From Bacteroidales bacterium (GTDB lineage Bacteria; Bacteroidota; Bacteroidia; Bacteroidales; UBA10428): a DNA stretch of 64,000 nucleotides. A model generated the notes under the pieces. That model was not told the DNA's origin, made no database searches, and saw nothing but the letters and a program-made list of their open reading frames with translations. Every line of letters starts with the position of its first letter. Position 1 is the stretch's first letter. The stretch is taken from positions 62,162-126,161 of the forward strand of contig JAFGIP010000051.1 in the NCBI GenBank assembly GCA_016929525.1, written 5' to 3'. Positions 2,841 through 32,233 of this stretch are shown here, piece by piece. The translations under genes and the position numbers were made by a program.

Positions 2841-5000
2841 TTATTTTTGTTTATCAGAACCTTTTTGAGGTGGCTGATTTTCGGGTTTTGGTAAAAGCAC
2901 TTTTCTTGAAAGTTTCAGATTACCCGTTTTTTCGTCAATGTCGATAAGTTTGACTTCAACCTCGTCGCCAACTTTCATTTCATCTTCTACATTATTAATT
3001 CTTCGCCACGCAATTTCTGATATATGCAATAAACCGTCTTTGTTGGGTAAAATTTCTACAAAGGCACCAAAACTTACTATCGATTTAATTTTTCCTTTAT
3101 AAATTTTCCCAATTTCCGGAACTTCGACTATAGCTCTGATTCTTTTAAGTGCCGCATTGATGGTTTCTTTATCAGATGCAAATACATCAACAACTCCTAC
3201 ATTTTCAACTTCTTCAATTACTATTGTAGCACCCGTTGTATTTTGAATTTCCTGTATTACTTTACCTCCGGGGCCAATTAGCGGCCCAATCATCTCTTTT
3301 TGGATAATGATTTTTTCAATTCTTGGTACATGTGGTTTGTAGTCTTCTCTCGGTTCTGAAATGGTCTTGGTCATTTCTCCAAGAATATGAAGTCTGCCTT
3401 CTTTCGCCTGTTCAAGTGCTTTGGCGAGTGTTTCATATGATAAACCTTCGACTTTTATGTCCATTTGTGTAGCGGTAATTCCGTCTTTTGTACCGGCAAC
3501 TTTAAAATCCATGTCTCCGAGATGATCTTCATCGCCAAGGATATCGGATAAAATAGCATATTTACCACTTTCAGTATCAGTTATTAGTCCCATAGCAATA
3601 CCTGATACGGGCTTTTTAATTTTAACACCTGAGTCCATTAATGCCAATGTACCGGCACAAACTGTGGCCATTGAAGATGAACCATTCGATTCAAGAATAT
3701 CTGAAACTACCCTGATAGCATAAGGATTATCTTCCGGTATCATCCTTTTAAGTGCACGATGTGCTAGATTACCATGACCGACCTCTCTTCTGCTGATTCC
3801 GCGGGATGCTTTTGCATCACCTGTAGAGAAAGGAGGGAAGTTATAGTGAAGAACAAATTTATCGGTACCTTGTATCAAGACTTCGTCAATGACTTTTTCG
3901 TCGAGCTTGGTACCAAGTGTAATTGTTGTCAACGATTGAGTTTCACCCCTGGTAAAAACTGCTGAACCATGAGCAGAAGGAAGATAATCAATTTCACACC
4001 ATATATGTCTGATTTCATTGGTCTTTCTTCCATCTACCCTAATCTTTTCATCGAGGATAAGAGATCTAACTGCTTTTTTTTCAACATCGTGAAAATACCG
4101 GCCAATGAGAACTTCATTTGGTTCTTCATCTTCGGGTAGTGCTGAGGCATACCATTCTGTGAACTCTTCTTTAACTGCGTCAAGTGCATCGTGTCGTTCC
4201 TGTTTGGCCGGAGTCGTTTTTGCAATTTTGTATACTTTGTCGTATGTTTTATCCCATATCAGTTTTTCAAGTTCTTCATCATTTTCCTCATGCGAATATT
4301 CCCGTTTTTCGGTTTTACCAACTTCCTTTGTTAATTCCATTTGGATTTTACATTGTTTTTTAATTTGCTCGTGAGCAAACTTTATAGCTTCAAGCATTTC
4401 TGCTTCAGAAACCTCATTCATTTCACCTTCAACCATCAGGATATTATCGATGGTAGCACCTACCATGATATCAATATCGGCTTTTTCAAGCTCGACAAAC
4501 GTAGGATTAATTTTAAGTTTACCATTTGTTCTTGCAACACGAACTTCAGAGATCGGGCCATTAAATGGAATGTCAGAAACCGACAAGGCAGCCGAAGCAG
4601 CCAAACCTGCGAGGGCATCGGGCGTTATTTCTTTTTCCGCTGATATAAGTAAAACATTAACAAATACTTCTGCATGAAAATCATCGGGGAAAAGAGGTCT
4701 GAGTGCCCTGTCGATAAGTCGTGCAATGAGTATTTCATAATCACCGGGGCGGGTCTCGCGTTTCATAAATCCACCGGGGAATCGACCTGCTGAAGCAAAT
4801 TTCTCTTTGTATTCAACTGATAACGGCATAAAATCGACATCTTCTTTTGCTTCTTTGGCGCATGTAACGGTAGCAAGCAACATAGTATTTCCCTGTTTTA
4901 CTACAACTGATCCGTCGGCTTGTTTGGCCAGCTTTCCGGTTTCAATTTCTATCGTTCTTCCATCGCCAAGATCAATGGTTTTTACAATTGATTTGTACAT
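2841..5000 (-). CDS. pnp: Polyribonucleotide nucleotidyltransferase (PNPase)
   Basis: 719 aa. Two RNase PH domains, KH ([10 protein letters not shown]) and S1 ([20 protein letters not shown]) domains, and the typical N-terminus with [19 protein letters not shown]. Confidence 0.97.
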
Positions 5001-6758: not shown

Positions 6759-8022
6759 TACGTTTTAGTAACAGATTACCTATTTGGCAATCGAGACATT
6801 TTTTACTTTTACAGTATTCAATGGTAAGTTGTAATATCGCCTGGCTGTCAGCAGTATGTCTTGGAATTATACCTAGTTCTTTCCATCTTCTTACAACCGA
6901 ATTATTTTCGGCAGGTAGATCCTCAAGTAAACGGACAGCTCTTTCTTTAAGCTCAGGTATTGATTTTATACTCGCATATACAAACATAAATGGGATAATA
7001 GTATTTATGATAAGTAAATGAACTGAACTTTTACCGATGGATTTATTCTGTATCCCGGATATTTTTCCAAAGGTATAGTGAGATTTCCAATATTCACTCA
7101 CTTTAAAAGAGTATAATTTAATCAGTTCATCAACATTTTCACATTCCATGGTTTTTGAGAATAAATGTTCTGAAATATGAATAAGGTTACAAAACTGAGA
7201 AATTCTTATTGTTGGAAAATTTGAGGGACGTAGTCGCATAAATTTCCAAATATGCTGCTCGAGAGGTTTTAAGCCGTATTTAGTTTTAAGATATTGATAC
7301 TCTTTCTTTAATTTGCTGTGGTAATTATCGACAGGCCTGGTATTTAACATTCCTGCCTGACCAAAGAGGATAGCTTCGAGCTGAAAAAGACTACTGCTGT
7401 GTTTTTCCAGTATTTTTAAAGGTGTAACCCTTGCGAGCATTTCGAAGGGGACTGAATTAACCTTTAATCCATAACTTTTTAAAAGATGAATGTAAAATGC
7501 ATCTTCCCAACTATTCTTTGTTAATTTCAGCAGTTCTTTTACTACGTTTATTTTTGATTGTAACCGCTCGATGGCTAAAGAACTTAACCAGAATGATATT
7601 AACGAATGGTTTAGTGATGAAAGTTCACTGGAGCAACTAATTAATTCAAAACTGTTTACCAGCTTATTGAATTTTTTATAAATGCTTTCGGGATATTTTA
7701 ATTTAATAGTTGGTATAAGCCGGCCGCTATTTGTAAAGCATTTACAATCATCTTTTTCTACAACATGAAGGATGACATTATTATAAGCATCATTTTTATG
7801 ATGATTATGGTTATTCCAATCGGATGCATTTTTATGAATCTCAACATTTCCGGCCCATTTTGTATTGTCGATTAAAATTTTCGCATGTGTAAAATCGGGA
7901 CCGGAATTACAATTATGTTCTCCGGTATTAAGTATTTTAATTTTTTCTTTATTACTGGCGGGATACTCAGTGTTTTCAAATAACGAATTTTTCCAGATAA
8001 AATGTAAAAACGCTTCCTGCAT
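6733..8022 (-). CDS. DUF2851 family protein
   Basis: 429 aa. The N-terminus MQEAFLHFIWKNSLF and the GPDF...GNVEIH segment are typical of Bacteroidota DUF2851 proteins (recognised from memory). The 3' end overlaps the channel gene by 26 nt. Confidence 0.75.
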   Translation of the reverse strand: MQEAFLHFIWKNSLFENTEYPASNKEKIKILNTGEHNCNSGPDFTHAKILIDNTKWAGNVEIHKNASDWNNHNHHKNDAYNNVILHVVEKDDCKCFTNSGRLIPTIKLKYPESIYKKFNKLVNSFELISCSSELSSLNHSLISFWLSSLAIERLQSKINVVKELLKLTKNSWEDAFYIHLLKSYGLKVNSVPFEMLARVTPLKILEKHSSSLFQLEAILFGQAGMLNTRPVDNYHSKLKKEYQYLKTKYGLKPLEQHIWKFMRLRPSNFPTIRISQFCNLIHISEHLFSKTMECENVDELIKLYSFKVSEYWKSHYTFGKISGIQNKSIGKSSVHLLIINTIIPFMFVYASIKSIPELKERAVRLLEDLPAENNSVVRRWKELGIIPRHTADSQAILQLTIEYCKSKKCLDCQIGNLLLKRNEHETRES

Positions 8023-8116
8023 TTGCGATTTAAGTTAAAAACCTAAAGATAAAAAAACATTAAATAAGATTATTTATAATCTTGGGTTGAGATTGTCAAT
8101 AAAAATTAAGATCGAT

Positions 8117-8947
8117 TTAGATTAGTTCAAATGCAGCCAGAATTTTTTCCATATCCGACTGAAGATCTTTTGCAGCTTTAGCGGCAGCATTTGCGAAATC
8201 ATTTGTACTATCTGAAAATATAATGGACCTTGAAGCATTGACAATTAATCCGCATTTATTGTTTAACCCGTATTCAGCAATATCTTTCAGGCTGCCACCC
8301 TGTGCACCAACACCCGGTACCAATAAGAAGTGATCTGGTATAAGCTCACGGATTTTTACAAGCATTGATACTTTTGTTGCACCTATTACATACATCATGT
8401 TTTCACTATTTCCCCAGTTTAATGACTTTTCGATTACATCGATAAACAGAGGCTTATTTAATTTTGAAGTGAAATATTGAAAATTTTCAGCACTCGGGTT
8501 TGAAGTAAGTGCTAAAAGTATCACGAATTTGTTCTTGAATTCGAGGAATGGTTTAACTGAGTCTTCTCCCATATATGGTGCAACAGTAACTGCATCATAA
8601 TTAAGGTTTTCAAAAAATGCGGAAGCATACATTTTCGATGTATTACCAATATCACCACGTTTGGCATCGGCAATTAGGAAAATATCGGGGTAATTTTGTT
8701 TAATGTAATTTGTGGTAAGTTCAAAGTCACGCCACCCTTCCAACCCGCGACTTTCATAAAACGCCAGGTTTGGTTTGCAGGCTATACAGTAGGGTGCAGT
8801 GGCATCAATTATTTGCTTATTGAATTCGTAAACAGGCCTCTCTACAGAAAGCAAATGCTGAGGAATTTTTTTTATATCGGAATCCAGGCCAACACACAAA
8901 AAGCTTTTTTTACGTCTGATGATAGAATAAAGTGTATCGGTATTCAT
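8117..8947 (-). CDS. pyrF: Orotidine 5'-phosphate decarboxylase (type 2)
   Basis: 276 aa. [29 protein letters not shown] and PGVGAQGG motifs. Confidence 0.9.
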
Positions 8948-9167
8948 GTTTGCAAACTGATTTGTATGAATTTAAAGATTGTCAAATAATGCGATCTGTC
9001 AATTATGTTTATTATGTAAAACCAATTTGTAATAATGGGGTGATGGAATACTGATAACCTTGTTTAAGAATCCTCAATATTCCAATTTTCCGCTATTACG
9101 AAACAATATATAAATTAACAATTCTTCAATTTCTGATATTATAAATTATTCAAATATCAAACTCACA

Positions 9168-10256
9168 TTAGTTTAATCCGCTTTCTTTAAGTCTTTCAGC
9201 ATTTTCAGCCATCTGCAATTTATCAATAATTTCCTGTATATCACCATTAATTATAGCCTGAAGGTTATACATGGTAAGATTTATTCTGTGGTCTGTAACA
9301 CGTCCTTGCGGATAGTTGTATGTTCTGATCTTTGCTGAACGGTCGCCTGTGGAAACCATTGTCTTTCTTTTTGATGAAATTTCATCAAGATATTTTTGGT
9401 ATTCCAGATTATATAGACGAGTTCGCAGTTCAGCCATGGCTTTGTCAAGATTCTTAAGTTTCGATTTTTGATCCTGGCAGGTAACAACCATACCGGTTGG
9501 TATATGTGTTAACCTGATTGCCGAGTATGTCGTATTCACCGACTGTCCTCCGGGACCTGATGAGCAGTATTCATCTCTTTTGATATCTTCCGGTTTAATC
9601 TCCACATCGAATTCTCCGGCTTCAGGTAAAACGGCAACCGTTGCGGCCGAAGTGTGAACCCGTCCCTGGGTTTCTGTTTGAGGTACCCTTTGCACCCTGT
9701 GAACCCCCGATTCATATTTTAAGATACCATAAACGCCGTCTCCTTTTACACTGAGAATAATTTCTTTGTATCCCCCGACAGTTCCTTCCGTGAAATTGGA
9801 AACTTCCATTTTCCATCTCTTCGATTCAATATATTTTGCATACATACGATACAGGTCGCCGGCAAAAATACTGGCTTCATCGCCGCCTGTTCCTGCGCGT
9901 ATTTCAAGCACAGCATTTTTTTTATCTTCGGGATCACTGGGAAGCAGAAGTATTTTTAATTCCTCTTCAAATGGCTCAACTTTTTCAAGCAGTTCATCCA
10001 GTTCTTCTTTTGCCATTTCACGCATTTCTTCATCTTTCTCTGTCGCAAGAATTTTTTTAGCATCATCTATATTGCTCAGTAAATTCTTATATTGATCATA
10101 ACTGGCCACAACAGGTTCAAGTTCCTTATATTCTTTATTTAATTTCACATACCTTTCCATATCGTTTATGATATCAGGTAGTGTAATTAACTCACCAACT
10201 TCCTGAAATCTGGTTTTTACCCCTTCCAATTTATCTAAGATCAAGTTTTTACCCAT
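9168..10256 (-). CDS. prfA: Peptide chain release factor 1
   Basis: 362 aa. GGQ motif ([11 protein letters not shown]), RF1-type [17 protein letters not shown] tripeptide region, and no frameshift site. Confidence 0.95.
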
Positions 10257-10268
10257 GTCAGATCAGAT

Positions 10269-11435
10269 TCAATATTCAAATACACCATGTTCGCCCTTTA
10301 TAGTAAGTCTCTTGCCACTCCATTTTTCAACCCTGCCAATAATTTGTGCATCGACATTAAATTCTTTAGAGATGTTAATAATGGTTTGAGCGTATTGTTC
10401 CGGTAAATAAATCTCAAACCTGTGTCCCATATTAAAGACTTCGTACATTTCCTGCCAGGTAGTTTCCGATTGTTCTTGTATTAATCTGAAAAGTAAAGGG
10501 GTAGGTAAAAGGTTATCTTTAATGATATGAAGGTTGTTAACAAATTTCATGACCTTGGTTTGTGCACCTCCGGAACAATGAATCATACCGTGGATTTTTG
10601 GTCGTAATTCTTTTAATACCGGTATAATTATGGGTGCATAGGTTCGGGTCGGAGATAATGCTAATTTTCCAATATCAACTATTGATTCCGGGACTATATC
10701 TGTAAGGCCATAACGCCCGGTGTAAACCAACGATGAAGGAATAAGGTCGTCGTAACTTTCCGGATATTTGTTTGCAAGATGATTATAGAATAAATCATGT
10801 CGAGCAGAAGTCAAACCATTACTGCCGATGCCGCTATTATATTCACTTTCATACGTGGCTTGTCCGTATGATGCGAGTCCAACAATCACATCTCCCGGTT
10901 GAATATTATTTTCTACAATTTCTTTTCGCTTTATTCTACTTGCTACCGTTGAGTCGACAACTATTGTGCGCACCAGATCACCAATGTCGGCCGTCTCACC
11001 CCCTGTAAGAAATATTTTCACTCCGAAACTGTTCAGATGAGTTATTAGTTCGTCGAACCCTCTCAGGATATGCATAATTACTTCACCGGGGATTTTTAAT
11101 TTATTTCTGCCTATCGTAGACGAAAGCAAAATATTATCAATTACACCAACACAAAGTAGATCATCAATATTCATAACAATGGCGTCTTGAGCAATACCTT
11201 TCCAAACCGATAAATCACGTGTTTCACGCCAATACATATATGCTAATGATGATTTTGTACCCGCACCGTCGGCATGCATAACTGTACAATATGAAGGATC
11301 GCCTGTAAAGAAATCGGGAAGAATTTTGCAGAATGCATTAGGGAATAATCCTTTGTCAAAATCTTCAACTGCCTTGTGTACATCTTCTTTCTGGGTAGAA
11401 ACGCCTCTCAAACTGTACCTTGTAGCTTCACTCAT
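10269..11435 (-). CDS. purM: AIR synthase-related protein (PurM-like phosphoribosylformylglycinamidine cyclo-ligase, Bacteroidota long form)
   Basis: 388 aa. ADGAGTKS and GGETAD motifs and the HCSGGAQTK C-terminal domain signature. Confidence 0.75.
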   Translation of the reverse strand: MSEATRYSLRGVSTQKEDVHKAVEDFDKGLFPNAFCKILPDFFTGDPSYCTVMHADGAGTKSSLAYMYWRETRDLSVWKGIAQDAIVMNIDDLLCVGVIDNILLSSTIGRNKLKIPGEVIMHILRGFDELITHLNSFGVKIFLTGGETADIGDLVRTIVVDSTVASRIKRKEIVENNIQPGDVIVGLASYGQATYESEYNSGIGSNGLTSARHDLFYNHLANKYPESYDDLIPSSLVYTGRYGLTDIVPESIVDIGKLALSPTRTYAPIIIPVLKELRPKIHGMIHCSGGAQTKVMKFVNNLHIIKDNLLPTPLLFRLIQEQSETTWQEMYEVFNMGHRFEIYLPEQYAQTIINISKEFNVDAQIIGRVEKWSGKRLTIKGEHGVFEY

Positions 11436-11656: not shown

Positions 11657-12370
11657 CTACTTTGTCTTATTTAAATATGAAAAGAATTCATTCCGGTATT
11701 CTTTGTCTTTGAATTTACCATGAAAGCTACTGGAGGTAGTTGAACTTCCATGATCTTTAATACCTCTCATTGCGACACACATATGCTCTGCCTCAATTAT
11801 TACTGCAACATCTTCCGTTTTAAGTGCATTTTTAAGTTCTTCGGCAATTTGTTCTGTAAGCCGTTCCTGCAACTGTGGTCTTCGGGAATAATAATCCACT
11901 ATCCTGTTAATTTTGGATAAACCAATTACATATCCGTTTGAAATGTATGCCACATGAGCCTTTCCGAGAATTGGTACAAAATGATGTTCGCAGTAAGAAT
12001 GAACTTTAATATCTTTCTCTACAAGCATCTGATTATAGTTGTACTTATTTTCGAATAGTGTTGCTTTTGGTTTATTTTTGGGATTCAAACCACTGAAAAT
12101 TTCATTAACATACATTTTTGCAACCCTGTTGGGTGTTTCCTGCAGGCTGTCGTCGGTTATATCTAAACCGAGTGCATCCATTATTTTTTCAAAATGCCAT
12201 GCAATTTTTTTAATTTTAGCATCGTTATCCGGCTCAAACAGCGGTTCTTCATTAAATTGTGTTTCACGATTAATGGAATTCTCAGTGTTGCCGACAACAC
12301 GCAAAAAATCTTTATATATTTCTTCCGATTTGTTTGTGTTAATTTTTGCTGTATTATCTTGAACTTTCAC
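11657..12370 (-). CDS. folE: GTP cyclohydrolase I
   Basis: 237 aa. Zinc and active-site motifs [12 protein letters not shown] and [11 protein letters not shown]. Confidence 0.93.
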
Positions 12371-12414
12371 TTTTCAAAATTAGATTGAGTTAATAATAAT
12401 GAGGCTGCACGATT

Positions 12415-12957
12415 TTAATTAAGATCATAATCCTTGAGTTTCTCCATAAGCTTTTTCCGGGTAAAAAATATTCGACTCTTTACAGTTCCGATCTTCAAAT
12501 TCAGTTTATCTGCAATTTCTTTATATTTATAACCCTGAGTATGCATCATAAAAGGTAATCTGAATTCATCACTTAATTCATTAATGCTTTTTTGTATCTC
12601 TTTAACAGAGTAATGTGAATCAGGAGATTCAAATGCTGATTCTTTATTGATGTTCAGATAATAAAGATCGTCAGTATTATCAAATGTTGTATTTGCCTTT
12701 ACATTACGTCTGTAATTATTAATAAATGTATTCTTCATTATTGTAAATGTCCAGGCTTTTAAATTTGTGTTTTCTTCAAATTTATCTCTGTAGGTAATTG
12801 CCTTTGCAAAAGTTTCCTGTAATAAATCCTTGGCATCTTCCAGGTTCGAGGTAAGACTCAAGGCAAATCTTTCAAGGTTACTTGAAAGATTAGTTAATTG
12901 GTAATTAAATTCTATTGCTGTCATAACTGTTCGAATTTGAGGTTTACCTGATTTCAT
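12415..12957 (-). CDS. ECF-type RNA polymerase sigma-70 family factor
   Basis: 180 aa. Region 2 (LLQETFAKAITYRDKF...NLKAWTFTIMKNTFINNYRR) and a region 4 HTH (GYKYKEIADKLNLKIGTVKSRIFFTRKKL). No anti-sigma gene is adjacent. Confidence 0.85.
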   Translation of the reverse strand: MKSGKPQIRTVMTAIEFNYQLTNLSSNLERFALSLTSNLEDAKDLLQETFAKAITYRDKFEENTNLKAWTFTIMKNTFINNYRRNVKANTTFDNTDDLYYLNINKESAFESPDSHYSVKEIQKSINELSDEFRLPFMMHTQGYKYKEIADKLNLKIGTVKSRIFFTRKKLMEKLKDYDLN

Positions 12958-12961
12958 TAAA

Positions 12962-12991
12962 TGTTTAACAAAAATATTGATAAGTTAAACA
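12962..12991. promoter_or_regulatory. Operator-like palindrome R1 (TGTTTAAC-N14-GTTAAACA) abutting the sigma factor start
   Basis: Perfect 8-bp inverted arms at 12962-12969 and 12984-12991. It lies 5 nt upstream of the ATG at 12957 and overlaps the candidate -7 box at 12969-12976. Confidence 0.5.
12969..12976 (-). promoter_or_regulatory. Candidate -7 promoter box for the ECF sigma gene
   Basis: CAAAaaTA on the + strand (TAttTTTG on -). It is only 12 nt from the ATG, implying a near-leaderless transcript if used. Confidence 0.3.
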
Positions 12992-13142
12992 CTAAACAAA
13001 TTCAGAACCTGCGTACACACCTTAATTTAAGGCTTATTATAAATAATAATAATATTCGAAAAAGTCTTTAATAAAGGATTACAAAACAATTAAATAGATT
13101 TATTCTAAATAAGATATAAATTACAATAAAATCTTTAACAAA

Positions 13143-13172
13143 TGTTTAACATATAATTAGAAAAGTTAAACA
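13143..13172. promoter_or_regulatory. Operator-like palindrome R2 (TGTTTAAC-N14-GTTAAACA), second copy
   Basis: Same perfect arms at 13143-13150 and 13165-13172 with the same 14-nt spacing, 181 bp from R1. Both copies share the flank aATGTTTAACA...AAGTTAAACA. Confidence 0.5.
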
Positions 13173-13308
13173 ATAAATTATGAATTTGCTGATAATCCAG
13201 TGCTATAGACCTGAATTTCTGCTTATTTTGAAGTATGTGAGTAATATCAACTACAAATTAATTGCAGCTAAGTTTAATAGTCAGGGTTTAATAAATTTAG
13301 TATAGTAA

Positions 13309-14199
13309 TTAAAGAGAATCGATATAGTTGAGTTCAGAAATCAAAATTTTGGGAGATCCGATAAATTTAATATTTGTGAAACCTGAACACAAATCTCTGA
13401 GTTTATTCTGACCGGTGATATATATAGATTTATCAGGGAATATTTTTGAAAGTCTTTCGAGATAATTCAAAGCTTCTTCATCGCTTAATGTAACTATAAA
13501 AGATAAATACAGATAATGACATGAACGAATTTTGTCTACTTCAATAAGGTCGTTAAACGGGACATTTTGGCCCAGATAAATTACCCGGTGTCCTCTTTTT
13601 CTGATCAGATAACTGGCAAACAGTAGCCCAAGTTCATGCATTTCACCTTCTGGCAGGAACAATAAAAAATTTTTAGTGTTTGGAGATTCACTTGAAAGCT
13701 GGCTATCGATGGCTACCAGCATTTTCTGGCGAATCAGGTTTGAAACGAAGTGTTCCTGTGCAGGATTGATTGTCCCTGTTTGCCACATGATACCAATTCG
13801 CATGAAGAATGGATTCAGCACTTTAATAACTGTATCTTCAAATCCTAACTGAATTATTGTTCTTGAAAGAATCCGTTCAAACTTGTTCTCGTCGAGATCG
13901 ATCATAGCAATAGCTAAGTTTTCGATCTGTGTCTCGGTATCTGTTAAATTTTCGGTTAACCTGCTTATGTTAGTAGTTATTTCATCATTTGTCAAATTAG
14001 CAATCTTAGAGATCTTGAATCCGTTTTTATTTAATATGGAAATATTTAGTAGTTTTTTAAGCTCCGCATCACAATATGTGCGAATATTTGTTGAAGTCCT
14101 TTCAGGCTCTATCAAACCATATCTTTTTTCCCAAATACGTATTGTGTGTGCTTTTATACCTGAAAGCTTTTCAAGATCTTTAATTGTATAATTTGCCAT
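13309..14199 (-). CDS. MerR-family regulator with C-terminal cobalamin-binding domain (CarH/LitR-like)
   Basis: N-terminal MerR HTH YTIKDLEKLSGIKAHTIRIWEKRYGL. Helical bundle with W-x9-EH (WQTGTINPAQEH). Rossmann B12 motif E-x-H-x-x-G (EMHELG) followed by RVIYLGQNVP. Start placed at MANYTIKD (14199); the ORF extends to 14223. Confidence 0.85.
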   Translation of the reverse strand: MANYTIKDLEKLSGIKAHTIRIWEKRYGLIEPERTSTNIRTYCDAELKKLLNISILNKNGFKISKIANLTNDEITTNISRLTENLTDTETQIENLAIAMIDLDENKFERILSRTIIQLGFEDTVIKVLNPFFMRIGIMWQTGTINPAQEHFVSNLIRQKMLVAIDSQLSSESPNTKNFLLFLPEGEMHELGLLFASYLIRKRGHRVIYLGQNVPFNDLIEVDKIRSCHYLYLSFIVTLSDEEALNYLERLSKIFPDKSIYITGQNKLRDLCSGFTNIKFIGSPKILISELNYIDSL

Positions 14200-14325
14200 T
14201 AGTTTAAATTTAATAATTAACAATAGTCTTTTTAGAAAGTTGGAGACTTTACTATTGTTACGGCAAGAATATTTGTTACATTATAGCATCTTATTCTCAA
14301 ACAAAAGAAATGAATATATTGTTTA

Positions 14326-14973
14326 TTATGAACTTTTTTTTCTTATCAGGTTTAAACCATCGCGTATTGGTAAGATAACGTTTTCTACCCTTCGATCATT
14401 TTTGATATGGTTATTGAAATTTATTATTCCCCTGGTTTCTTTATCTGCGTTGTCAGAACCTTTTATCACTTTACCGTCCCATAAAACATTATCAGCAATA
14501 ACATAACCTCCATTCCTGACTTTATCAATAACCACTTCATAATATTCTACATAATCTTTTTTTTCTCCGTCAATAAAAATAAGGTCGTATAAATTTTCAA
14601 GTCCCGGAATAATTTGTAACGCATCACCAACTATAATATTTACTGACCCTTCCAAGCCTGCTTTATGAATATATTTTTCCGCCAGGTGGATTATTTCATC
14701 ATTAATTTCAATGGTTGTTAATTTACCTCCTTTATCAAGTCCTTTTGCCATACAGATAGCTGAATAACCTGTAAATGTGCCTATTTCAAGAATATTTTTT
14801 GGACGTATCATCCTTGATATTATCTCCAGGAATTTACCCTGTAAATGTCCGGACAGCATCCTGGGGTACAAGGCTTTCAGATGAGTTTCACGGCTGAGTT
14901 CTTTCAGCAACTTGTCTTCATCTGAAGAATGAAGTTCTGCATAATCAAGAAGATCAGTGTTAATTTCAGGCAT
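14326..14973 (-). CDS. Class I SAM-dependent O-methyltransferase (Methyltransf_3 / caffeoyl-CoA OMT-like)
   Basis: 215 aa. ILEIGTFTGYSAICMA SAM motif, FIDGEKKDY, and GGYVIADNVLWDG. Confidence 0.85.
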   Translation of the reverse strand: MPEINTDLLDYAELHSSDEDKLLKELSRETHLKALYPRMLSGHLQGKFLEIISRMIRPKNILEIGTFTGYSAICMAKGLDKGGKLTTIEINDEIIHLAEKYIHKAGLEGSVNIIVGDALQIIPGLENLYDLIFIDGEKKDYVEYYEVVIDKVRNGGYVIADNVLWDGKVIKGSDNADKETRGIINFNNHIKNDRRVENVILPIRDGLNLIRKKSS

Positions 14974-16208: not shown

Positions 16209-16232
16209 TCTAAATAAGGGTGACAGAGCTTA

Positions 16233-30042: not shown

Positions 30043-30319
30043 ATGGTGGCTATTTCTCCCGCTGTCACAGCCAGGTAAAAGAATGTCATCAATTGTCACC
30101 AGGTTGTAAAGAATTTCATTTCATTTATAAAAACAACCAAATATTCTGTTATTTAAAAGAAATTTAGAAGTTAAAATGACTTTAACTTTTATAACTGAAT
30201 AAGTGAGCTTTATAATTTGTTTATAAGAGGATGAACATTATTTAGAATAACATGTAACTGAATAAGATCTTGTGGGAATAAGTTATCTAAATTCATTAAA
30301 TTTAGAACTATTCTAAATA

Positions 30320-32233
30320 ATGCCTTATATGAATAAAATGCTAAACCCTCTACATCTAAGTAAGTTATTTGCAGCAACTTTCATTTTATTAAATATCTCG
30401 AATTTTAATGCTTGGGCTGGTGATCCCGAAACAGACGGCTCAGATGTAAGATCAGTCTGGACGCTTGGGGTGGAGAATGCAGTAACAGTTTATTTTAAGA
30501 ACGATGAAGCATTTACGGCAAATGATTTTGAAGTATCGCTTGCTATATGGCGCCAAACGAGTATATCAGGATGGGAACTAGAATATTCATATTATGAATC
30601 TGGTATAACATTTCACCCAAATTCAACAGTGGAAATCACAACAGGTTTATACACACCAACAATTGCAGGGAAATATCAGCTTGCTGTATCTTCCTACTCG
30701 CCTGACGATATTGATCTTACAAATAATAACTATTATAAAGATTTTATAGTTGGAAATTATAAAAGACTTTCGTTAAAACAGGTTAGTCTTATTGAACCAT
30801 ATCAACAGGAAAACAGCACCTGGGGAGCCTTTAAAGCAAAGCTTCCTGCTAAGGAATATTTCTCTTATTTAAATGTTAAATTGAGGGAACCTGAAACAAC
30901 CAATGAACAATGGATGATTAAAAATGCGCCATCACCGCCATTTGCAATCGAACATACTTTATATTACTACTTTAATTTTGGTAAGCTTGGATATATATCG
31001 GGGGTTGATATCGAAAACATTGATATGGCCATTCGCGAAGACGAGGAACCTGTACTAGAGGATTATTCTACATATGAATACATTAATAAACGTGTATGGA
31101 ACCTTGAATATCAGGTACCTGGGAATGGAAATGGACCGAATGAGTATGTAAATGAATCGTTACCTACCGTAGTATCGAATTCGACAATTGGTGATATTCC
31201 AGTTCCCGACTGGCTATTTCCGGGTTGCGAAATTCCCAATATCGATCTCGACAGCAGCAAACATAAGGTCACTGAAGAATACGCCGGTGATTTGAATGCA
31301 TGCGGACCTGCAGCAGCAGCCAACAGCATTCAGTGGCTCGAGAATAAGCATGAAGAAATTGAGTCGGGAACCTCACATCGAGAAAAGTTGGAAGAAATTA
31401 GCAGCTTAATGGAACGCGGAGCCGAGGATGGGGTTACGACAACACAATTAATAAAAGGGAAGCTGTCATTTATTGATAAATATCAACTTCCGATACATGT
31501 GAAATACCAAAGTTTCTTTCTGACGACAGACAGTATTCCATCGCCCGACACAACATATGGGCACCAGGCCGATAATATGAGCGATTCGATTGGTAAACAG
31601 ACACCACCTACATGGGAATTTCTGAAGCAAGAGGTTGAAAAAGGTGAAGATGTTGAAATAATGTTCGGATGGTACGATCACGGAGCTACCCGTCATGGAG
31701 GACATTGGGTGACCGTAAGCGGTTTTGTACAATCGGGTGATGTCAAAGGAATATTTATCAAGGATGACGCTGAACAGGGTGATTCGGCAGGTATACAAAA
31801 TCACTATCACCAGTGGGAAACTGATGAGAACTGGTCACGACTGGCGGGTTATGACGGACCTAATAATTATTGCTGGGTGGAAAGCATTGTCTCTGAAAGT
31901 TATGACTCAACTGTAACGTTCGATACAGCCGGTTCCGAACCAGTATCTTTTGTTGAAAATGATATCAATGATATAAACCTTGTTGTATTGAATAATCCGG
32001 GTCCTGCAGGTCAGGATGCGCAAATTGGATTCACGCTTAATGGTTCTGCCCGGGTAAGCGCCAAGGTATTCGATAACAGGGGGGCATTAATCGGACAAAT
32101 GAATTTTGGTCAGATGCTTGCCATCAGACATATACAAAACCTGCCAGCAAACTGGTTTGCCAATAAGGGAGTTTATTACCTCGCACTACAGGTCGATGAT
32201 ACATTACATATGGTAAAACTTATCCGGTACTGA
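30320..32233 (+). CDS. T9SS-targeted protein with papain-fold / C39-like Cys-His peptidase-like domain
   Basis: 637 aa. Signal peptide. Candidate catalytic Cys in GDLNACGPAAAANSIQWL. Candidate His in RHGGHWVTVSGF followed by IFIKDD. C-terminal T9SS-like domain (VSAKVFDNRGALIG...GVYYLALQVDDTLHMVKLIRY). Confidence 0.6.
   Translation: MPYMNKMLNPLHLSKLFAATFILLNISNFNAWAGDPETDGSDVRSVWTLGVENAVTVYFKNDEAFTANDFEVSLAIWRQTSISGWELEYSYYESGITFHPNSTVEITTGLYTPTIAGKYQLAVSSYSPDDIDLTNNNYYKDFIVGNYKRLSLKQVSLIEPYQQENSTWGAFKAKLPAKEYFSYLNVKLREPETTNEQWMIKNAPSPPFAIEHTLYYYFNFGKLGYISGVDIENIDMAIREDEEPVLEDYSTYEYINKRVWNLEYQVPGNGNGPNEYVNESLPTVVSNSTIGDIPVPDWLFPGCEIPNIDLDSSKHKVTEEYAGDLNACGPAAAANSIQWLENKHEEIESGTSHREKLEEISSLMERGAEDGVTTTQLIKGKLSFIDKYQLPIHVKYQSFFLTTDSIPSPDTTYGHQADNMSDSIGKQTPPTWEFLKQEVEKGEDVEIMFGWYDHGATRHGGHWVTVSGFVQSGDVKGIFIKDDAEQGDSAGIQNHYHQWETDENWSRLAGYDGPNNYCWVESIVSESYDSTVTFDTAGSEPVSFVENDINDINLVVLNNPGPAGQDAQIGFTLNGSARVSAKVFDNRGALIGQMNFGQMLAIRHIQNLPANWFANKGVYYLALQVDDTLHMVKLIRY

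Follow-up and report, generated by a model that had tools for sequence, protein, structure and literature searches.

A 64,000-nucleotide stretch of a Bacteroidales contig (GenBank JAFGIP010000051.1, positions 62,162 to 126,161; referred to here as the window) carries two copies of one palindrome, R1 and R2, in the spacer between a gene for a MerR-type regulator with a B12-binding domain and a gene for an extracytoplasmic function (ECF) sigma factor. The locus raises the question of which protein reads these dyads and how they act on the sigma gene. CarH/LitR photoreceptors have been studied in detail in Thermus, Bacillus, Myxococcus and Streptomyces, and optogenetic tools make use of them. The analysis indicates, with good confidence, that both dyads serve as operators for the adjacent regulator, which would be an adenosylcobalamin-sensing dark repressor of the CarH/LitR type that controls the sigma gene.

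The dyads and their conservation

The initial annotation described both copies as perfect 8-14-8 palindromes, noticed the pair of 8-mers nowhere else in the window, and reported shared flanks at a distance of 181 bp. All of these statements hold. The pattern TGTTTAAC-N(10-18)-GTTAAACA has exactly two matches in the 64 kb, R1 and R2 at the positions listed in Table 1; 100 dinucleotide-preserving shuffles gave none. Taken alone, the arm TGTTTAAC is present 7 times, with 3.8 copies expected for the window; R1 and R2 account for four of these copies, and those at 8260, 20706, and 46370 have no partner at the right distance. The only further dyads in the window are matches with three mismatches (19036 and 20705), which were judged to be chance. 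The flanks form 38-nt blocks (12959-12996 and 13140-13177) that are 82% identical and lie 181 bp apart from start to start. R2 is located 136 nt past the stop codon of the regulator gene. Two such sites are not a product of chance even at the G+C content of ~20% of this spacer, and the comparative data settle the matter.

One scan of a species-representative genome collection gave 80 loci that encode relatives of the regulator from many Bacteroidota lineages, including Bacteroidales, Lentimicrobium, Marinilabiliales-like bacteria, Cytophagales, Chitinophagales, Flavobacteriales, and Saprospiraceae. A sigma orthologue follows the regulator in tandem in 55 of the 80 loci. In 926 kb, comprising the 80 related loci and the window, the exact pattern TGTTTAA-N16-TTAAACA occurs 44 times; gaps of 6-15 and 18-26 nt give 0-1 matches each and a gap of 17 nt gives 6. 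The dyad is present in 53 of 56 regulator-sigma spacers, with R1 at the orthologous position, and sites with at most one mismatch in the related loci are intergenic in 87 of 92 cases, though ~81% of the sequence is coding. Where no sigma gene is nearby, dyads immediately precede the regulator gene itself or a pair of genes for fasciclin and the regulator. The closest relative, L002, features two perfect dyads that are again 181 bp apart; a comparison of the printed sequences shows that 6 of the 14 dyad-spacer bases are shared with R2 of the window, and the alignment of the surrounding spacers, L002 included, has a mean column identity of 58%.

The consensus of 80 sites is tTnTGTTTAAY-N14-RTTAAACAnnA, in which the 14-nt spacer is poorly conserved. 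The arms are exact over 8 bp in R1 and R2, as first described, but only 7 bp are conserved among relatives (TGTTTAA-Y ... R-TTAAACA). The eighth positions prefer Y and R; this pair (positions 8 and 23) is the only variable one and is complementary in just 29 of the 80 sites. This result bears on the alternative that the palindromes act as RNA hairpins, either in a transcript that reads through from the regulator gene, as the initial annotation suggested, or in the leader of the sigma mRNA. Each dyad can form an 8-bp stem of -5.2 to -8.8 kcal/mol with a z of about -3 versus shuffles, and no terminator is predicted between the regulator and sigma genes. However, the phylum keeps the sequence of the arms and shows no compensatory changes, the AU-rich stems with their 14-nt loops are weak, and Rfam gives no match at E ≤ 1 in 12300-14400. 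Additionally, the dyads stand in either orientation relative to their target genes, and the predicted transcription start near 12964 places nearly all of R1 upstream of the transcript. It is the sequence and not the pairing that is conserved, which makes the hairpin reading very improbable.

The regulator, the half-site and the putative target genes

The N-terminal DNA-binding domain of the regulator matches Pfam MerR_1 (E = 1.3e-14) and MerR (E = 2e-10) and aligns to that of T. thermophilus CarH. The protein also matches Pfam B12-binding_2, and B12-binding at E = 4e-4, which is below the gathering score. The Wx9EH motif is present (WQTGTINPAQEH); all 19 homologues retain W139, E149, and H150, which line up with the corresponding motif of T. 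thermophilus CarH. The ExHxxG motif, which provides the lower axial His, is present as GEMHELG, its E186 and H188 are likewise invariant in 19 homologues, and it aligns with PGERHEIG in the Thermus protein. Among solved structures the nearest is T. thermophilus CarH (5C8D, E = 2e-19), with an alignment that extends over both domains. The regulator thus shares with CarH from T. thermophilus, B. megaterium, and M. xanthus the MerR winged helix-turn-helix, the four-helix bundle with Wx9EH, and the Rossmann domain with ExHxxG. It differs in that its best NCBIfam match, CarH, scores 118 bits and is below the equivalog cut-off of 400. An identical protein is recorded from a Bacteroidales metagenome-assembled genome. 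As judged by these motifs, the regulator is a complete CarH-type photoreceptor with the full CarH/LitR class I signature.

Each CarH DNA-binding domain reads an 11-bp repeat with the consensus TnnACA (PMC8156234; PMC9304148). The arm TTAAACA of the dyad contains TAAACA, which is a TnnACA half-site, and T, A, C, and A are each above 90% in 80 sites that had been selected on these bases. The half-sites are inverted (TGTTTA-N18-TAAACA), and the two TnnACA hexamers are 24 bp apart from center to center. Tandem CarH repeats hidden within the 14-nt spacer were considered and ruled out, since positions 9-22 feature no TnnACA periodicity. In T. thermophilus CarH, a head-to-tail dimer contacts two repeats that are 22 bp apart (PMC9304148). 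A similar span (24 versus 22 bp) with reversed polarity is structurally conceivable and implies a different arrangement of the DNA-binding domains. All 80 loci show a near-invariant recognition helix, GIKAHT[IL]R[IAM]WE[KQR]R, and wing, RTxTNIR, and the half-site is near-invariant too.

The genes that follow the dyad were collected from a scan of unrelated metagenome contigs, in which the exact 8-14-8 pattern gave 120 loci, 108 of them with an intergenic dyad. The downstream genes encode an orthologue of the ECF sigma factor (20 loci), a TetR_C_23 protein (19), a CrtI-like phytoene desaturase (9, all adjoining a regulator gene), fasciclin (7), epimerase/DUF1731 (6), a bacteriorhodopsin-like pump (5), DUF2452 (4), PTPS followed by folE (3), DUF2911 (3), and DUF4397 (2). 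Carotenoid, rhodopsin, and pterin genes are expected targets of a photoreceptor, and the content of the regulon fits a light sensor. In the genome loci, crtI is located directly behind the sigma gene in 15 cases, followed by crtB in 14 and by NUDIX/idi in ~8. These 15 loci include L014, L036, and L041 (about 7500-10400) and come from, for example, Flavobacteriales, Cyclobacteriaceae, and Adhaeribacter, which are presumably aerobic. In L014 the sigma gene and crtI are separated by 2 nt, and the sigma and crt genes are probably one operon. No sigma-dependent promoter motif was identified. In aquatic Bacteroidota metagenomes a second arrangement is found, in which the regulator gene is followed by a single dyad and crtI with no sigma gene between them (L092, L093, L095, L097, L114, L144, L147, L169, and L192). 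This layout implies that a direct design and a sigma-cascade design both exist in the phylum.

Exact dyads are also located just before genes of the bacteriorhodopsin-like, proteorhodopsin type in L106, L110, L136, L151, and L173; the L110 protein matches Pfam Bac_rhodopsin with E = 1e-41. These sites suggest that the same repressor may directly control a light-driven pump in aquatic, probably marine, Bacteroidota. Genes for fasciclin-domain proteins are recurrent dyad targets (L031, L048, L064, and L069 at about 4390-4440; L086, L099, L149, and L163), as are genes for DUF4397 proteins with a type IX secretion system sorting tail (L032, L037, and L133). In Carboxylicivirga, Mariniphaga, and Prolixibacteraceae (Marinilabiliales-like) the order is dyad, fasciclin gene, and regulator gene.

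It is reasonably probable that the 7-16-7 dyad represents a second, undescribed DNA-binding mode of B12 photoreceptors, with head-to-head TnnACA elements 24 bp apart that are doubled at master-regulator promoters, and that it marks a phylum-wide direct CarH/LitR light regulon. Such a regulon would include the ECF sigma gene together with genes for carotenoids and pterin/folate, and in marine Flavobacteriia it would extend to the proteorhodopsin gene, which would provide a concrete candidate for light sensing by rhodopsin-bearing flavobacteria. In a more radical variant, the module would signal the availability of adenosylcobalamin, and not light, in sediment-dwelling anaerobic Bacteroidales such as the host. 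A B12-dependent repressor acting directly on the rhodopsin and carotenoid genes of marine flavobacteria would tie the supply of vitamin B12 to phototrophy. Bacteroidota are among the dominant phyla in oceans, soils, sediments, and guts, and one 30-bp motif would allow the direct light regulon to be read from any of their genome sequences. The inverted geometry and the twin operators would also imply a DNA-bound quaternary arrangement unlike that in the T. thermophilus CarH crystal structure, which is of interest for the mechanism and for tighter engineered light switches.

Overlap with the promoter motif, doubling of the dyad and proposed mode of action

The sigma-A -7 box of Bacteroidota, TAnnTTTG, is located at -12 to -5 of mapped starts according to transcription start site (TSS) maps from Flavobacterium (PMC9723704). 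The initial annotation noted that R1 overlaps a TAnnTTTG-like box, and TATTTTTG is indeed found there, reading from 12976 to 12969 on the minus strand. A perfect TAnnTTTG, assigned by motif only, lies over the proximal dyad in 43 of 53 spacers and in only three registers relative to the dyad, -6 (9 cases), +4 (16), and +15 (16); the remaining 14.5 kb of spacer contains only 14 boxes, or 0.037 for each 38-nt window. The R1 box is in register +15, as in the closest relatives L002, L003, L005, and L006. No perfect TAnnTTTG box overlaps R2, and distal dyads are usually free of a -7 box. The five closest spacers share a near-invariant ATTTG block immediately before the proximal dyad (four have TTTG and L022 has TTG), and by analogy with the Bacteroidetes promoter layout the TTTG at 13000-12997 is a plausible -33 element. 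The box rule puts the start at about 12964, so the sigma leader would be ~40 nt long and R1 would span about -27 to +3. Repression by occlusion classically relies on an operator placed in this way, across both the start site and the -7 box. A scan for sigma-70-type promoters gave matches at the level of shuffles and is uninformative for Bacteroidota.

The position of R1 relative to the sigma gene has to be corrected. The initial annotation placed R1 5 nt upstream of the sigma ATG; the distance to the ATG at 12957, which opens the longest open reading frame (ORF), is 4 nt, and this ATG is not conserved. In 55 of 55 related regulator-sigma loci the start of the sigma gene aligns with the ATG at 12924, which is codon 12 of the long ORF (ATGACAGCAA). 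The start of the longest ORF is therefore probably wrong, and R1 ends 37 nt upstream of the likely start at 12924.

The location of R1 within the promoter raises a second reading, in which the regulator binds the dyads and acts as a light-dependent activator in the style of MerR or Streptomyces LitR, instead of or besides acting as a dark repressor. MerR-family operators are classically located between the two promoter elements, as R1 is (PMC8156234 for the MerR mode), and Streptomyces LitR provides a precedent at the litS promoter in the light (PMC11519972). However, both the predicted start site and the entire -7 box lie within R1, and the -33/-7 spacing of 20 nt appears canonical and not over-long. 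The three -7 registers across lineages are easy to accommodate by steric occlusion and hard to accommodate by activation that depends on geometry, and the characterized B12-dependent CarH proteins all act by occlusion (PMC8156234). Activation is quite unlikely on this evidence, and repression by occlusion is preferred.

The sequence of the arms (GTTTAAC ... GTTA) can also be read as the -35 and -10 elements of an autoregulated ECF sigma promoter. ECF sigma genes are commonly autoregulated, and ECF -35 elements often contain AAC. A CGT motif has been described for ECF-type -10 elements (PMC9723704). The perfect two-fold symmetry, including the outer TGT/ACA, is unexpected for an ECF promoter, and the AAC-GTT distance of 14 nt is below the usual 16-17 nt. 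Dyads that precede crtI, and dyads that precede the regulator gene in loci lacking the sigma gene, argue against this reading, as does the canonical sigma-A -7 box embedded in the dyad, and it is hardly credible.

That the dyads are bound by a dimeric or tetrameric repressor, with the neighboring MerR-B12 protein as the obvious candidate, was already proposed in the initial annotation. This operator reading is supported by the fixed spacing of the arms, the link to the regulator gene, the -7 overlap, the TnnACA half-site, and the light-related target genes, from which we infer the binder. In the proposed mechanism, the B12-loaded oligomer would occupy both TnnACA-containing arms of each dyad in the dark. 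At R1 it would cover the sigma-A promoter, including TATTTTTG, and exclude RNA polymerase, and R2 would serve as an auxiliary operator 181 bp upstream. Light would photolyze adenosylcobalamin, upon which the oligomer would disassemble and leave the DNA. The sigma-folE operon would then be transcribed, and the ECF sigma factor would turn on further photoprotective genes.

This scheme combines features of two known systems. With the CarH systems it shares an operator that lies over a sigma-A promoter of the regulated gene (by motif in this case) and a half-site with TnnACA. Streptomyces LitR was reported to act as a repressor of litR/litS in darkness and as an activator of the litS promoter under light (PMC11519972). 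The present locus resembles the LitR-LitS system in that a LitR-family regulator gene adjoins an ECF sigma gene that is its proposed target and that, in 15 other Bacteroidota loci, is followed directly by crtI. It differs in that the Streptomyces genes are divergent with bidirectional promoters, whereas the genes here are in tandem with twin dyads over a Bacteroidota-type promoter, and in that folE and not crt genes follow the sigma gene in the window. The sequence comparisons are thus consistent with a CarH-like action, a B12 repressor on a sigma-A promoter, within a LitR-LitS-like wiring, a photoreceptor that would control an ECF sigma gene linked to crt genes. The class II LitR proteins of Pseudomonas (PplR/PmlR) are similar in that their LitR-family light regulon includes folE and pterin genes, but they do not contain the B12-binding Rossmann domain and need a LOV partner (PMC9758184), whereas the regulator here has a complete B12 module.

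A second dyad is found within 350 bp at 19 of 19 metagenomic sigma promoters, mostly with 0-1 mismatch. At other targets it is found in 0 of 9 (crtI), 0 of 6 (TetR and epimerase), 1 of 7 (fasciclin), and 1 of 5 cases (rhodopsin). The doubling of the dyad is a conserved property of the sigma promoter and not an accident of the window, and it sets these promoters apart from CarH operators, the second complete dyad being 33-186 bp away. The center-to-center spacings are lineage-specific (33-36, 41-46, 54-55, 63-64, 100, 112, 140-143, 153, 166, and 181-186 bp), and the short classes step by ~10 bp. LacI (O1/O2/O3), GalR, and lambda CI use a promoter operator together with a second, identical site tens to hundreds of bp away; here the second site is kept only at the master sigma gene, where tight control would be needed. 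The likeness of the twin dyads to these auxiliary-operator repressors is one of analogy, with weak evidence for phasing. A role for R2 solely as a roadblock that stops read-through from the regulator gene was also considered; it is weakened by the tandem regulator-crtI pairs, which carry a single dyad. That R2 is an auxiliary operator is a conjecture, and the favored version is that it would tighten the repression of the master regulator through cooperative binding or looping.

Several points weigh against the assignment of the dyads to the CarH/LitR-type regulator and against the roles proposed for R1 and R2. The characterized CarH operators consist of three or four tandem 11-bp direct repeats (PMC8156234; PMC9304148), whereas the half-sites here are inverted, and there are no cryptic 11-bp repeats in the 14-nt dyad spacer (7 of 80 sites have C at position 18). 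Covariation of protein and site is precluded as proof of the binder because the DNA-binding domain is near-invariant in the 80 loci. R2 has no recognizable promoter. The dyad spacings have a periodicity of R = 0.62 at 9.8 bp for all 35 pairs versus a null 99th percentile of 0.43, but with 20 distinct distances the value is 0.48 versus a null 95th percentile of 0.51 and is not significant; helical phasing is thus at most suggestive. A search outside the subscription-only literature found no binding, footprint, TSS, or light-response work on any Bacteroidota member and no paper on the motif or on any Bacteroidota LitR/CarH operator or its targets. The host is a Bacteroidales metagenome-assembled genome whose relatives are largely from sediments and anoxic waters, which questions the ecological sense of light sensing. 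Finally, the TetR_C_23 gene that follows 19 of the 120 exact dyads, mostly at 28-39 nt, encodes a possible alternative binder.

In the latter case the dyads would be bound by another factor such as the TetR-like protein, and the CarH/LitR-type gene would merely be a co-regulated neighbor. Autoregulation through a palindrome is typical of TetR-family regulators. Half-sites ~24 bp apart are ill-suited to a single TetR dimer. The window lacks a TetR_C_23 gene, and none lies within 6 kb of any dyad-carrying locus among the 80 that encode the regulator. TetR-like proteins vary in their putative recognition helix (ETEFYNYF, ESKFYEFF, EQNFYKHF, and EDDFYQFF are examples) while the dyad is identical, in contrast to the near-invariant LitR helix, and the arm of the dyad is a CarH TnnACA half-site. 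The TetR_C_23 gene is accordingly read as a member of the regulon, and the TetR-like protein is unlikely to be the binder; the CarH/LitR-type regulator remains the preferred one. The TetR-like protein has 218 aa and a degenerate N-terminal helix-turn-helix, and its gene is the second most frequent one behind exact dyads. The loci that encode it are L082, L125, L132, L139, L166, L171, L190, and 12 more; the dyad precedes this gene in many marine Flavobacteriia, and 6 loci have it in divergent orientation to an NAD-epimerase/DUF1731 gene.

Gene context and the second spacer element

Table 1. Coordinates of the dyads, promoter elements, and genes in the window. The genes are all on the minus strand in the order M16 peptidase, O-methyltransferase, regulator, spacer, ECF sigma factor, and folE.
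Feature	Position	Strand	Description
R1, sigma-proximal dyad	12962-12991		TGTTTAAC-N14-GTTAAACA, exact match
R2, distal (putative auxiliary) dyad	13143-13172		Exact match, 181 bp upstream of R1
Predicted sigma-A -7 box	12969-12976	minus	TATTTTTG, fused to the right arm of R1
Candidate -33 element	12997-13000	minus	TTTG, 20 nt upstream of the -7 box
Predicted transcription start region	12962-12966	minus	About 12964, from the -12 to -5 box rule
Second spacer element	13104-13123	minus	Between R2 and R1; two tandem 11-bp repeats (TAATTTATAtc TTATTTAGA)
M16 peptidase	16208-14982	minus	
O-methyltransferase	14973-14326	minus	
CarH/LitR-type regulator	14199-13309	minus	MerR winged helix-turn-helix and B12-binding domain; proposed binder of R1 and R2
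Regulator-sigma spacer			351 bp; R2 first, then R1 in gene direction
ECF-type sigma factor	12415-12924	minus	169 aa from the conserved start
folE (GTP cyclohydrolase I)	11657-12370	minus	Pfam GTP_cyclohydroI, E = 5e-67
Second motif, further copy	16209-16217	minus	
Second motif, further copy	30238-30246	plus	
Second motif, further copy	30312-30320	minus	

The sigma gene product features Pfam Sigma70_r2 and Sigma70_r4_2 and is above the cut-off of the NCBIfam sigma70-ECF superfamily. There is no anti-sigma gene adjoining the sigma gene here, and there are no crt genes near it in the window, where folE takes that place. The folE gene begins 44 nt past the sigma gene, the terminator scan found no terminator-like site between them, and folE is probably co-transcribed with the sigma gene. 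In other lineages, folE or PTPS-folE is also found behind dyads, and folE in Pseudomonas is light-induced under LitR-family control (PMC9758184). Upstream of the regulator gene of the window (14200-14325) no dyad is found at up to three mismatches. A dyad is located directly before the regulator gene in L016, L017, L019, L061, L063, L067, and L072, where the regulator appears to be autoregulated. A coding function of the regulator-sigma spacer was rejected; its small ORFs have only 20-41 aa, and none is matched by a conserved block in the spacer alignment.

The spacer contains a second element between R2 and R1, which is a conserved block in the five closest spacers. The sequence TATTTAGA is present in 20 of 56 regulator-sigma spacers versus 13 of 387 control intergenic regions, and its distance from the proximal dyad is fixed, at about -119/-130 and -53. 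Near the marine metagenome dyads it is rare (3 of 120), and its membership in the dyad system is uncertain. The motif reads cTTATTTAGA(A) and is palindromic in some loci (TTATTTAGAnnnnTCTAAATAA). All four copies in the window are intergenic; one of them directly adjoins the ATG of the M16 peptidase gene, and another adjoins the ATG at 30320.

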